DNA of 40,000 bases from Pseudescherichia vulneris (GTDB lineage: Bacteria; Pseudomonadota; Gammaproteobacteria; Enterobacterales; Enterobacteriaceae), in NCBI GenBank assembly GCA_046518185.1, contig JBKGRZ010000004.1:142015-182014 (forward strand), given 5' to 3'. A model generated the notes under the pieces. It made no database searches, was not told where the DNA came from, and was given only the letters and a program-made list of their open reading frames with translations. The stretch's first letter is position 1. Every line of letters starts with the position of its first letter. This document shows, one piece after another, positions 18,476-21,522 of this stretch. Position numbers and translations under genes: made by a program.

Positions 18476-19363
18476 ATGTCAGTTAGCATCGTTATTACAC
18501 TCTATAATAGAAAGGATCTGGTAGTGCGAGCAATAGATAGTGTATCTGCGCTTGCTAAAATGGATGGTGTTGAAATTATCGTCATAGATGATGGTTCAAC
18601 TGATAATCCGTTGGAAATTCTTTCGTCATATATAACTGACGAAGTTATTTCGTACCATTATAAAGTAAATGGTGGTGCTGCTGATGCGAAAAATTATGGA
18701 GCTAATATCGCGAAGGGGGAATATGTTATTTTTCTCGATAGTGATGATTATTTGGTTAATAGTTTCGAACTTGTTTCGTTCATAAAAAATAATATAAAAG
18801 CCAAATATGATTTTTTCTACTCTCAAAGTGTTATTATTAAGAAAAATAGTTTGACCCTTGAGGATTTTATTTCTGATGATTTTAGTAATGCGATGAGTAT
18901 ATACAATTATGCGATATCTTTCCCTCTCAATTATCCCGGAAAACCAACATATATTTTTAGAAGGGAAAGGTTTTTAGGCGTTGAGGGCTTTACTACGTCT
19001 TTTAAATGGGGCGATGCAATGTTATTTTGGCGCCTATTTCTAGCTGATGCAAAATGTTGCATGATTAATTTCCCATCTTACGTGTATGATCAATCAAATG
19101 ATCAAAGCATTAGTCGCCAACGTAGTGATAATTATTATTCGAATGTATATCATACATTGACCGTAACTTACGAAAAAATCAAACCTACTTTAAAAGAGAC
19201 TGATTGCCAACTGAATTGGGTGTTGATTTTATGGTTACTCAGCGCTCGTCTGTTTAAAAGTATAGATTTTTTAAAGTTATCATTCATTATATGTGCACAC
19301 CCATTGAAAGCAATTAAAGCTGCCATTTATATTATGAATAAAAGGAAAGGCAGACATAAATGA
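18476..19363 (+). CDS. Family 2 glycosyltransferase
   Basis: MSVSIVITLYNRKDLVVRAIDSV…IIVIDDGSTDN…IFLDSDD carries GT2 motifs. It starts 2 nt after the wzy stop. Confidence 0.88.
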   Translation: MSVSIVITLYNRKDLVVRAIDSVSALAKMDGVEIIVIDDGSTDNPLEILSSYITDEVISYHYKVNGGAADAKNYGANIAKGEYVIFLDSDDYLVNSFELVSFIKNNIKAKYDFFYSQSVIIKKNSLTLEDFISDDFSNAMSIYNYAISFPLNYPGKPTYIFRRERFLGVEGFTTSFKWGDAMLFWRLFLADAKCCMINFPSYVYDQSNDQSISRQRSDNYYSNVYHTLTVTYEKIKPTLKETDCQLNWVLILWLLSARLFKSIDFLKLSFIICAHPLKAIKAAIYIMNKRKGRHK

Positions 19364-21522
19364 AAAAAATTAAATTTCCATTTGGGATAGTTATACTATT
19401 GCTAATTAGCATCCTGCTAGGAATAAACTTTCGAACAAACAATGAACTATATGCTTCTATTCCCTTAGAGAATAAAATCGATCTTCTAAGCACATCGTTT
19501 GGTTTCCCTATTGAAGGGTACAATAAACCCTCAGGGGCATTAAATTCAGCTGGCTTTAATCAAGGACTCTCGCAATTCAATATTCCTCCTTTACAGGAAG
19601 TAGATTCAGGAATGGGGGTTGCTAATCCAGGAAATCTCCGTAAGGGAGATAATGCCACTGCGCTGCCTTCTACATTACTCCTCGCATCGACTTTTTCTAA
19701 AGAAGTAGCCTTATTAGCAGGTAAAATACTCGGAAGCGAGGCTAAAGATAAGGGGTTTAATATTGTACTTGCTGGTGGTGTTAACTTAATAAGAGAACCT
19801 CGAAATGGACGGAATTTCGAGTACGCAAGTGAAGATCCATTTTTATCTGGGGAAATTACGGGGTCTTTCGTCAAAGGAATACAAAGCCAAAATGTTGTTT
19901 CAACTATAAAACATTTTGCGCTCAATGCACAAGAAAATGGGCGTGTAGTTCTCAATTCTGTAATTAATGAAAAGAATGCACGTGAATCAGATTTATTAGC
20001 CTTTGAGATTGCCAACGAGATTGGAAGCCCTGGGGCTGTGATGATGGCTTATAACAAAGTTAATGGCGACTATGCGTCAGAGAATGCTTTTTTGATAAAC
20101 CATGTATTAAAAGGTGATTGGAAATTCAAAGGATGGGTTATGTCTGATTGGGGAGGTACTCATTCAACTGTCAAAGCAGCACTAGCTGGATTAGACCAAC
20201 AGTCAGGATTTCAGTATGACGATAAACATTACTTTGGATCTCCATTGCTGGAGGCTGTAAGAAATGGTCAGATTCCCATCGAACGGATAGATGATATGTT
20301 CTCGAGAATTATGACGATGCTAAAATTACATAATGCATTCTCGAAAAGTAAAAAATTATCTGATGAAGATTATCAACAACATGTACAAACAGCTAAAATG
20401 ATAGCTGAGAAAGGCATTGTCTTGCTTAAAAATGATAATATACTTCCACTGAAAAATAAAACCAAAAAAATTATCATTATCGGTGGTTATGCGAATAAGG
20501 GGGTATTATCAGGTGCAGGGGCAAGCCAAGTAATTCCAGTTGGAAGTTTTTTATTAAGATCAAATCAGGGTGTTCAAGTTTTTCATCCTAATTCTCTAGT
20601 TGAAGCGTTAAAAAGAAATCTACCTCAGACTGATATTCTGTTTTATAATGGCGAGGACTTGAATAAAATTAATAAAGAGATTAGTAACGAAAATACAATT
20701 GTATTTGTTGTCGCTAATCAATGGAGCAAAGAAACTCGAGATCATTCATCGTTGAGCTTGCCAAATAATCAGGATCAGCTAATATCAAGTATATCTGCTT
20801 TGAATAATAATGTTATCGTTATTCTACAAACCGGTGGTGCAGTTAAAATGCCATGGGAGGCCTCTGTTAGAGGAATTATTGAAGCATGGTATTCTGGTAT
20901 TGGCGGAGGAGATGCAATCGCTAATATTATTCTTGGGATTGTAAACCCAGCAGGAAGGTTACCGATATCATTTCCAGCGGATGAAAATGATTTACCTCAT
21001 CCAATTTTACGGGAATGGTCAACAACAACATCAAGCCCAAGATTGCCTAAAAAAGGATTGTTTGATGTTAACTACAATATAGAAGGTTCTGATGTTGGAT
21101 ATAAATGGTTTACAAAGAATAAAAAATCCATGCTATATCCATTTGGATATGGTCTATCGTATACAAAATTCGGCTATTATGATTTTTCCGTAGTTAATAC
21201 TCATGGTAAAATAGGCACTATAAGTGCGAAAATAAAAAACATAGGGCCTTTTGCAGGGACTGATACACCGCAGATATATATATATGCGGCTGCAGGAAAA
21301 ATGAAATTAGTTTCATATTCTCAAGTTTATTTAAATCCCGGGCAAGAAAAAATCGTTAAGTTTACTATTGACCCTCGCCTAATTTCTCAATTCAATGTTG
21401 AAAAACAGTATTGGCAAACTCTTCCAGGAGTTTACACTCTTTGCTTATCAAAATATGCCGGGAATTGTGCCGCAAAAAAAGAGGTTACCCTCGAAAAAGC
21501 AGTTGCATTTAAATATAATTAA
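19360..21522 (+). CDS. Glycoside hydrolase family 3 protein (BglX-like) with N-terminal signal/anchor, encoded inside the O-antigen operon
   Basis: 720 aa. GH3 hallmarks are KHFALN (aa 184-189) and GWVMSDW, with the predicted nucleophile Asp263 (gat 20146-20148). A C-terminal GLSYTKF is followed by an Fn3-like tail. The N-terminus MKKIKFPFGIVILLLISILLGINF is hydrophobic. The start overlaps the upstream GT2 stop (ATGA at 19360-19363). Confidence 0.85.
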   Translation: MKKIKFPFGIVILLLISILLGINFRTNNELYASIPLENKIDLLSTSFGFPIEGYNKPSGALNSAGFNQGLSQFNIPPLQEVDSGMGVANPGNLRKGDNATALPSTLLLASTFSKEVALLAGKILGSEAKDKGFNIVLAGGVNLIREPRNGRNFEYASEDPFLSGEITGSFVKGIQSQNVVSTIKHFALNAQENGRVVLNSVINEKNARESDLLAFEIANEIGSPGAVMMAYNKVNGDYASENAFLINHVLKGDWKFKGWVMSDWGGTHSTVKAALAGLDQQSGFQYDDKHYFGSPLLEAVRNGQIPIERIDDMFSRIMTMLKLHNAFSKSKKLSDEDYQQHVQTAKMIAEKGIVLLKNDNILPLKNKTKKIIIIGGYANKGVLSGAGASQVIPVGSFLLRSNQGVQVFHPNSLVEALKRNLPQTDILFYNGEDLNKINKEISNENTIVFVVANQWSKETRDHSSLSLPNNQDQLISSISALNNNVIVILQTGGAVKMPWEASVRGIIEAWYSGIGGGDAIANIILGIVNPAGRLPISFPADENDLPHPILREWSTTTSSPRLPKKGLFDVNYNIEGSDVGYKWFTKNKKSMLYPFGYGLSYTKFGYYDFSVVNTHGKIGTISAKIKNIGPFAGTDTPQIYIYAAAGKMKLVSYSQVYLNPGQEKIVKFTIDPRLISQFNVEKQYWQTLPGVYTLCLSKYAGNCAAKKEVTLEKAVAFKYN

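Follow-up and report, generated by a model that had tools for sequence, protein, structure and literature searches.

Why should an operon that builds a surface polysaccharide also encode an enzyme that takes sugars away? The question is raised by a gene in a 40,000-nucleotide stretch of the genome of Pseudescherichia vulneris (GenBank assembly GCA_046518185.1, contig JBKGRZ010000004.1, positions 142,015 to 182,014; the whole stretch is hereafter called the window, and all positions refer to it). At 19360-21522, on the forward strand, an open reading frame (ORF) with an ATG start encodes a 720-residue glycoside hydrolase of family 3 (GH3), with a BglX-type three-domain layout and a predicted N-terminal anchor. 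The gene lies within a Wzx/Wzy-type O-antigen cluster. Such clusters are read as sets of genes for sugar synthesis, for transferases and for Wzx, Wzy and Wzz, and a count of the transferases serves to predict the structures of their products. An earlier reading of the letters of the window, here called the original prediction, had drawn attention to the gene. We find that the GH3 feature is real, conserved and unexpected, and from it we infer a biochemical role. The case for and against that role is about evenly balanced: an inner-membrane-tethered, periplasm-facing exo-beta-glycosidase would trim a terminal beta-hexose from the flipped O-unit or from the polymer, with topology, sugar, substrate and consequence all belonging to the proposal.

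A glycosidase gene in an O-antigen module

From 5' to 3' the window holds wca genes up to wcaM, an epimerase gene, galF, a JUMPstart element, eight tightly packed genes, gnd, ugd, another epimerase gene, wzzB and the his operon. The cluster is bracketed by galF on its 5' side and gnd on its 3' side, with wzz nearby, and is a standard enterobacterial O-antigen locus for a repeat with glycerol phosphate. Its eight genes all run on the forward strand in the order GT2a-tagD-wzx-GT2b-wzy-GT2c-GH3-tagF, where GT2 stands for a family-2 glycosyltransferase. Between about 14 and 23 kb the guanine plus cytosine (GC) content is 30-37%, against 55-62% in the colanic-acid and his flanks. The GH3 gene, at 36%, is AT-rich like its module neighbours (30-35%), as had been predicted, while gnd has 54%.

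The junctions of the gene are tight on both sides, as originally described. The upstream GT2c ORF ends at 19363, so the ATGA at 19360-19363 is a start/stop overlap; a Shine-Dalgarno-like stretch (AGGAAAGG) lies about 11 nt upstream. The GH3 stop codon TAA (21520-21522) is separated by 8 nt from the ATG of tagF at 21531. An antisense ORF of 151 codons within the GH3 gene (19560-20015, reverse strand) is presumably spurious.

In a protein search a single identical protein was followed by ten clusters with 63-66% identity, after which identity fell to 50%. Every close GH3 homologue with a readable contig lies between GT2c and tagF in the same eight-gene module with the same gene order. The hosts are a Scandinavium sp. 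(L001), Enterobacter cloacae (L002-L004), E. sichuanensis (L005, L006) and a twin of the window (L016). The module was also found in three lineages from run assemblies (L020, L021, L022), of which L022 has a different chromosomal backbone (dcuC-terC ... ugd-gnd-DUF496), and an eighth copy, in E. ludwigii (L023), was found through a TagF search. Gene content and order are identical in the window and L016, L001, L002, L005, L020, L021, L022 and L023. The module is thus present in at least seven deeply diverged lineages, comprising Pseudescherichia/Scandinavium, three Enterobacter lineages and others, and it circulates among clinically relevant species of the E. cloacae complex. Across lineages the GT2c/GH3 junction ranges from an 11-nt overlap to a 9-nt gap and the GH3/tagF gap is 8-12 nt throughout; the junctions are as tight in six other lineages as in the window.

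This order has been kept over a large evolutionary distance. Module proteins are 50-92% identical between lineages and synonymous differences are saturated (proportion of synonymous differences, pS, 0.71-0.88). The adjacent gnd (22908-24314) is 90-98% identical between the same lineages, in contrast to the saturated module (13608-22706). The module consists of ancient O-antigen alleles that move among hosts and have passed between Pseudescherichia/Scandinavium, Enterobacter and at least one further backbone, that of L022. With 63-66% identity to the window protein, GH3 is among the better-conserved products of the module (GT2a 55-64%, GT2b 50-54%, GT2c 50-59%, Wzy 57-62%, TagF 57-63%). In the three non-saturated Enterobacter pairs its ratio of nonsynonymous to synonymous substitution rates (dN/dS), at 0.12-0.16, lies in the range found for its neighbours. 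The gene is under purifying selection, and its ORF is intact across saturated synonymous divergence.

The view of the original prediction that the gene is an integral operon member and no recent insertion is borne out, because it occupies the same slot, abutting both neighbours, in seven diverged module versions and is under purifying selection. The overlapping or adjacent ORFs kept in seven lineages also give it a feature of operon-encoded polysaccharide hydrolases, namely a place within the biosynthesis operon. The GH3 gene is a selected, co-transcribed part of a horizontally mobile eight-gene Wzx/Wzy module that specifies a glycerol-phosphate repeat and three inverting GT2 transferases.

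A dispensable or decaying passenger with no current function would leave a different record, and we regard this explanation as hardly credible. What speaks for it comes from E. ludwigii, where GH3 is called as two ORFs (L023:7854-9992, GCA_054382255.1) owing to an A7 to A8 homopolymer indel near residue 205; a second such indel, T9 to T8, lies in the anchor codons. These indels may reflect recent inactivation, slipped-strand switching or an error of sequencing or assembly. When both are corrected, a 713-residue protein with the catalytic motifs results, and its dN/dS of 0.14-0.16 gives no sign of relaxed selection, for which reason a sequencing error is possible; both indels lie in T8/A8 runs. 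The GH3 gene holds 6 of the 29 homopolymer runs of at least 7 nt in the module, and two random errors would both fall there with p~0.04. Elsewhere the ORF is intact in at least six lineages with invariant catalytic residues, and dN/dS is the same as or below that of the neighbouring transferases, which speaks against a passenger.

Outside this set of lineages the searches gave little. Megablast and blastn with the GH3/tagF region gave no match in 5,426 complete Escherichia coli genomes, where only GT2a had weak DNA matches. A scan of species-representative genomes with the single GH3 protein, in which the peptide patterns were too specific, retrieved distant GH3 genes only, mostly in metagenome-assembled genomes of Firmicutes. 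A plasmid collection contained only stand-alone relatives of at most 47% identity.

Fold, active site and specificity

The original prediction had read a GH3 enzyme with a BglX-like three-domain layout from motifs in the translation, and this assignment holds. Pfam matches above the gathering score were obtained for PF00933 (residues 63-319, E=1.6e-29) and PF01915 (353-601, E=1.7e-47); the Fn3-like domain PF14310 matches residues 644-695 (E=2.5e-7, 31.2 bits against a cutoff of 25), and the AlphaFold2 model has a C-terminal beta-sandwich at 604-718. The motifs KHFALN (184-189), GWVMSDW with Asp263 and GLSYTKF (598-604) were all found.

The catalytic pair was mapped by HMMER alignment to T. neapolitana Bgl3B, in which Asp242 is the nucleophile and Glu458 the acid/base (PMC6929035). 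Asp263 (codon gat, 20146-20148, in the SDW motif) aligns with the former, as predicted, and Glu458 (codon gaa, 20731-20733, in WSKETRD), a residue that the original prediction had left unnamed, aligns with the latter. Both are invariant in 55 family members, and so are D82, R151, K184, H185, Y231 and W264. These six align with D58, R130, K163, H164, Y210 and W243 of Bgl3B, which we take to be the glucose-binding residues of the -1 subsite. By the invariant residues and their alignment to Bgl3B, the active site is intact and of the beta-glucosidase type.

Structural comparison leads to the same family. The best match to a solved structure is BglB of C. thermocellum (7ms2), with an E-value of 3.5e-101 that makes a chance assignment to GH3 untenable; PSTG1, DesR and T. 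neapolitana Bgl3B follow. The AlphaFold2 model, built on the 55-sequence alignment, is confident (predicted local distance difference test score, pLDDT, 93; predicted TM-score 0.93), and Foldseek aligns it with the GH3 beta-glucosidases 9lql, 7ms2, 4i3g and 2x41 at TM-scores of 0.82-0.84 and E-values near 1e-60. The solved enzymes BglB (7ms2), Bgl3B (2x40/2x41), the steryl-glucoside hydrolase PSTG1 (8j9f/9lql) and S. venezuelae DesR (4i3g) share the three-domain fold, the nucleophile, the acid/base and the -1 subsite with the window enzyme. They differ from it in sequence (Foldseek identity about 26-29%) and in having no membrane anchor, and none is reported from a polysaccharide-synthesis operon. 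E. coli BglX is likewise a periplasmic GH3 with the same domain order but is a soluble housekeeping enzyme. With every testable defining feature of the family recognised in its sequence and model, the window protein is assigned as a new GH3 member.

The sugar that it would remove is harder to read. In the NCBIfam equivalog models all GH3 specificities scored far under their cutoffs: an arabinopyranosidase model came first (361 of 1300 bits), followed by beta-glucosidase Celf0468 (267 of 1300) and BglX (NF011678, 215 of 666), with the xylosidase models at 162-228 bits against cutoffs of 1050-1350. Two of the three options that the original prediction had left to structural analysis are disfavoured. 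A NagZ-like hexosaminidase and a phosphorylase, for which a single domain or a His-type acid/base would be expected, were rejected on a score of 18.8 bits for NF003740 (cutoff 207), on the canonical Glu acid/base and on the two-domain active site. Enzymes of GH3 are retaining exo-glycosidases in the CAZy classification, removing a single sugar from the non-reducing end. The sequence and model point to a catalytically competent retaining exo-beta-glycosidase, most likely of the beta-glucosidase type.

A retaining enzyme could also build rather than trim. A periplasmic transglycosylase would move a beta-hexose from a donor glycoside to the O-unit or the polymer and so add a branch where other systems use a transferase of the GT-C type. 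Retaining GH3 enzymes can transglycosylate, and the module encodes no Gtr-type GT-C, yet this explanation, which the original prediction had listed among the roles, gained no support and is very improbable. The acid/base Glu458 is intact and invariant, and features of engineered or natural transglycosidases were not seen. GT2c was considered as a GtrB-like maker of undecaprenyl-phosphate glucose that would feed such an enzyme and was rejected, as a transmembrane segment was found in none of the three GT2s; because none of them is GtrB-like, with its C-terminal transmembrane helices, no periplasmic donor pathway is evident.

The predicted N-terminal anchor and the stand-alone relatives

The protein begins with the basic sequence MKKIK, followed by a very hydrophobic stretch of 19 residues with a mean Kyte-Doolittle hydropathy of 2.56 (residues 6-24, FPFGIVILLLISILLGINF, codons at 19375-19431, forward strand). 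In agreement with the original prediction, an AXA cleavage site is absent. The AlphaFold2 model has a helix at residues 8-21 and a low-confidence hinge at 22-24. We interpret the stretch as an uncleaved signal-anchor, that is, a transmembrane helix. A lipoprotein was considered as an alternative and ruled out, as there is no conserved lipobox. The predicted anchor would leave the N-terminus in the cytoplasm and hold the catalytic domain near the periplasmic face of the inner membrane. Operon-encoded hydrolases of the PslG/BcsZ/ExoK type are periplasmic or anchored in the inner membrane; for the window enzyme such a location is predicted from the hydrophobic N-terminus and its basic flank.

The anchor belongs to a particular branch of the family. 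In a neighbour-joining tree of 55 sequences the GH3 proteins of the O-antigen clusters are monophyletic in 50 of 50 bootstraps; they are 59-87% identical to each other and 42-51% identical to all others. The first 50 residues of the top 120 hits were scanned for a stretch of 19 residues with a mean Kyte-Doolittle value of 2.2 or more, and such a stretch was found in this clade only. The threshold is passed by 9 of its 9 full-length calls, and the hydrophobic core of a tenth member (P0005) is somewhat shorter. Among the stand-alone relatives in this set, about 35 have a shorter N-terminus resembling a signal peptide, which in many of the inspected cases ends in an AXA-type site (e.g. ...SWA|VEA), and about 74 have none. 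The anchor sequence varies between the lineages of the clade and keeps its character: 2-4 Lys/Arg, then 15-20 hydrophobic residues and no small-x-small site. A linker of some 10-15 polar residues leads to the first conserved helix, with the motif E-x-K-I-x-LLSTSFGFPI. The membrane tether that the original prediction had considered possible thus finds support in a signal-anchor-like N-terminus confined to the O-cluster clade. Together, the tree and the N-termini point to a single recruitment of GH3 into the module, with a new N-terminus.

The stand-alone proteobacterial enzymes (Pseudomonas P0012/P0016, Erwinia P0025, Duffyella P0077, Chimaeribacter P0018) belong to the same subfamily, with 42-51% full-length identity and identical catalytic and -1 subsite residues. 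They differ from the window enzyme in having cleavable signal peptides or none and in being encoded by isolated genes. The surroundings of the examined ones are unrelated: a TetR gene in Pseudomonas, fimbrial genes nearby in Erwinia, and large plasmids in Duffyella and Chimaeribacter. The O-cluster clade has about a dozen fixed substitutions, including S83 (next to D82), M85, D130, Y286, A386, A388, W553, K586 and F609, which are known here by their position in the sequence rather than by their place in the modelled active site.

These relatives raise the question whether the enzyme acts on the O-antigen at all. Its substrate might be another periplasmic or exogenous beta-glucoside, such as osmoregulated periplasmic glucans or plant glucosides, and the gene a linked accessory trait. 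This idea would fit the relatives of 42-51% identity, "beta-glucosidases" encoded by stand-alone genes in unrelated contexts, and it would fit an unchanged -1 subsite with only about a dozen clade-specific substitutions. Nevertheless we consider it distinctly unlikely. The GT2c-GH3-tagF slot is invariant and start/stop coupled through synonymous saturation and several host genera, the clade gained a membrane anchor of its own, and loss or gain of GH3 goes with that of wzy and GT2b (see below). Had close homologues been scattered, the gene would look like a housekeeping gene that happens to lie here; the nearest homologues (58-87%) are all in the same cluster, and only relatives of at most 51% identity are dispersed.

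Genes that travel with GH3

Some of the proteins that are 56-63% identical to the TagF-like protein come from lineages in which no GH3 had been found, and these sister clusters show which genes accompany the enzyme. In L024 (6242-11164) and L025 (6221-11164) the arrangement is GT2a-tagD-Wzx-like-GT2c-tagF, with orthologues that are about 60% identical, and gnd begins directly after it. These clusters have neither GT2b nor wzy nor GH3, and GT2c and tagF are only 87-115 nt apart. For GT2b there is no full-length match in these two clusters, only weak N-terminal similarity to the GT2 domain. E. coli ES1 (L030:1-7807) has the same five-gene arrangement in its annotation, interrupted by the insertion sequences IS1 and IS5. 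In a more distant metagenomic cluster (L026) a GT2c-like gene lies directly next to tagF, without an intervening GH3, and the three distant loci retrieved in a metagenome scan with a TagF alignment all lack GH3. From the contents of the sister clusters it follows that, within this cluster family, the presence of GH3 coincides exactly with that of GT2b and wzy. This comparison draws on seven or eight lineages that carry all three genes and two or three that lack them, and it fits gain as well as loss.

Upstream of the clusters in L024 and L025, and likewise in the ES1 annotation, lie wzm/wzt-type ATP-binding cassette (ABC) transporter genes, a gene of the WavE family and genes for two unknown soluble proteins (581-594 and 347-351 residues, with a weak DUF7796 match). 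A Wzx-like protein inside an O-antigen locus of the ABC-transporter type is odd. The eight-gene form with GT2b, wzy and GH3 and the five-gene form make a natural comparison pair.

Proposed role of the enzyme

GT2 enzymes are inverting and make beta-linkages from UDP-alpha-sugars, so the three transferases of the module should form beta-linkages, the type of linkage that the predicted glycosidase would cleave. The tethered active site would face the compartment in which units linked to undecaprenyl diphosphate are flipped, polymerised and ligated. In the proposed trimming, the O-unit linked to undecaprenyl diphosphate would be flipped to the periplasmic face, where the membrane-proximal GH3 would remove a terminal beta-linked hexose installed by one of the GT2s. 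The chief candidate for adding that hexose is GT2b, because it is gained or lost along with wzy and GH3. The removal could take place before or during polymerisation by Wzy, or at the exposed non-reducing end of the polymer, and its outcome could be an edited final O-antigen or a polymerisation that is licensed or limited. Three variants of this mechanism can be considered: GH3 could take off a transient cap or handle, could edit just the distal repeat, or could remove the acceptor sugar and so halt polymerisation. In the first of these, an extra beta-hexose added by GT2b would serve as a transient handle or cap for flipping or for Wzy polymerisation and would then be clipped in the periplasm by the anchored GH3. 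We hold this specific version only tentatively and think it somewhat unlikely.

Several points weigh against trimming. Adding a sugar only to remove it looks wasteful, and if the sugar belongs to the main chain an exo-enzyme would touch one residue per chain. The topology is predicted from hydrophobicity and charge, and some relatives have no signal at all and are presumably cytoplasmic. The sugar specificity is not called by NCBIfam, where the top match is an arabinopyranosidase model. The co-occurrence of GH3, GT2b and wzy comes from few independent lineages. An excess of one transferase over the number of sugars is so far only a prediction of the proposal. Finally, the two frameshifts in E. 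ludwigii, if real, would make the enzyme dispensable in that strain.

Known systems offer both support and a further alternative. PslG of the Psl pathway of Pseudomonas aeruginosa is a hydrolase encoded in a Wzx/Wzy operon, associated with the inner membrane, with a periplasmic catalytic domain and a part in biosynthesis, as is proposed here for GH3. It differs in having a GH39 fold, in acting endo, and in serving a secreted exopolysaccharide exported by Wza/Wzc-like proteins instead of an O-antigen ligated by WaaL. Normal Psl synthesis requires PslG, for which a failsafe function has been proposed. By analogy with PslG and BcsZ, the anchored GH3 could degrade mis-routed, stalled or over-long polymer in the periplasm, thereby keeping undecaprenyl-phosphate recycling going and tuning chain-length modality. 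The window enzyme is likewise operon-encoded, predicted to be anchored and co-inherited with wzy. However, GH3 acts exo on single sugars and its closest solved relatives are all exo-beta-glucosidases; one exo-specificity cannot depolymerise a heteropolymer with GlcNAc or GalNAc and glycerol phosphate, and PslG is an endo-acting GH39. A failsafe or chain-length role of this kind is therefore unlikely.

More broadly, BcsZ (GH8), PelA, PgaB, AlgL, ExoK (GH16) and WcaM share the theme of a degradative enzyme that is encoded with synthesis genes and acts in the periplasm or outside the cell. They differ in being endo-acting or of other families, and they mostly belong to synthase-dependent or exopolysaccharide systems; there is no GH3 of an O-antigen locus among them. 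Endo-cleavage of the cognate polymer, which belongs to this type of hydrolase, is improbable for the window enzyme, since GH3 members as a rule act exo. The GH3 module belongs to this theme of operon-encoded polysaccharide hydrolases and is new in its family, in the expected exo mode and in its lipopolysaccharide O-antigen pathway. For trimming after translocation there are conceptual parallels in the "glucosylate inside, deglucosylate outside" scheme of DesR and in the trimming of N-glycans by glucosidases of the endoplasmic reticulum (ER), in which a sugar is removed after export; these are analogies only.

The original prediction had stated that no characterised GH3 of an O-antigen cluster was known, and the literature search found neither this cluster nor such an enzyme. 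Full-text searches gave no paper in which GH3 is paired with wzy or an O-antigen cluster, although the carbohydrate-structure literature is incompletely covered by this search and may hold a precedent. No glycosidase appears in the supplementary gene tables of 30 E. cloacae serotypes, and the words hydrolase, glycosidase and glucosidase do not occur in a review of the E. coli O-antigens. Genes called "glycoside hydrolase" in an Aeromonas table, placed among genes with glycosyltransferase names (wbxV, wbpI), were set aside, since they are not of GH3 size; they may be mis-annotated transferases.

If the proposed trimming is correct, it would add an editing step after flipping to the Wzx/Wzy lipopolysaccharide pathway. 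The rule of one transferase per linkage would be broken, and gene content could over-predict the sugars of the mature repeat. Recognition of the exposed chain end in serotyping, by phages and by antibodies could change. Should the hexose be a transient handle, the system would be a bacterial counterpart of glucose trimming in the ER or of DesR-type deglucosylation after export.

Other genes of the locus

The remaining features, all on the forward strand unless stated otherwise, complete the picture of the operon. At the 5' boundary galF (12375-13268) matches PF00483. It is followed by the JUMPstart element (13524-13562; Rfam RF01707, 60.2 bits against a gathering score of 35, E=1.8e-13) with its ops sequence (GGCGGTAG at 13551-13558), which marks the start of an RfaH-type O-antigen operon. 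Promoter-like and terminator-like matches within the cluster showed no excess over the shuffled expectation.

The first gene, GT2a (13608-14429; PF00535, E=8.9e-22), encodes an inverting transferase without a transmembrane segment and occurs in both the eight-gene and the five-gene variants. The tagD-like gene (14426-14818; PF01467, E=7e-25) encodes a glycerol-3-phosphate cytidylyltransferase that makes CDP-glycerol and is 87-92% identical in amino acids between lineages; its score against TIGR01518, 131 bits, is under the 165.4-bit cutoff. The putative Wzx-like flippase (14823-16343) is a polytopic protein of 506 residues with many hydrophobic segments, a weak match to the NCBIfam model WZX_like (33 bits, cutoff 300) and no Pfam match at E<=1. 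An orthologue of it is the protein found in the wzm/wzt-type locus. GT2b (16340-17293; PF00535, E=1.6e-26) is limited to clusters with wzy and GH3. The wzy gene (17295-18473) encodes an O-antigen polymerase of the EpsG family (PF14897, E=5.6e-52); its product of 392 residues is also found in L001-L022 and is missing from L024 and L025.

The mechanical TTG/GTG ORF starts of three of these genes are probably too far upstream. For wzy the mechanical ORF begins at TTG 17268, and the ATG at 17295 yields the 392 residues seen in other lineages. In the same way GT2a probably starts at ATG 13614 (271 residues) rather than 13608, and GT2b at ATG 16349 (314 residues) rather than 16340, the lengths being those called in other lineages.

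GT2c (18476-19363; PF00535, E=7.5e-23), whose stop overlaps the GH3 start, abuts tagF in clusters without GH3. Matches in an NCBIfam search for GT2 specificities were too weak for use; the one that covers most of GT2c is PglI, a beta-1,3-glucosyltransferase, whose 60 bits, with a cutoff of 500, amount to no more than a hint. The module ends with tagF (21531-22706; PF04464, E=3.3e-54), for a TagF-like CDP-glycerol glycerophosphotransferase. At the 3' boundary gnd matches PF00393/PF03446, and the chain-length determinant wzzB (27024-28028) scores 497 bits with NF012015, above its cutoff. An exact-sequence look-up returned identical NCBI proteins (MFP22397xx) for Gnd, Ugd, WzzB, GalF, WcaM and the TagF-like protein, from which the names used here are taken; close relatives are found in Scandinavium.

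Many suspect that WcaM (9572-10975) of the colanic-acid cluster is a periplasmic protein resembling hydrolases. Its gene lies only about 9 kb upstream of GH3, and it may be a second operon-encoded candidate for glycan processing within the window. Between wcaM and galF an epimerase gene of the short-chain dehydrogenase/reductase type (11140-12141) is present in the window, L005, L020 and L022-L025. It is missing from L001, L002 and L021 and is hence not an obligatory partner of the module. In L020 an extra set of genes on the opposite strand between gnd and ugd (L020:16141-20251) encodes an STM0557-like glycosyltransferase, a GtrB-like GT2 and an acyltransferase-3 protein, and is probably an additional O-antigen modification system.

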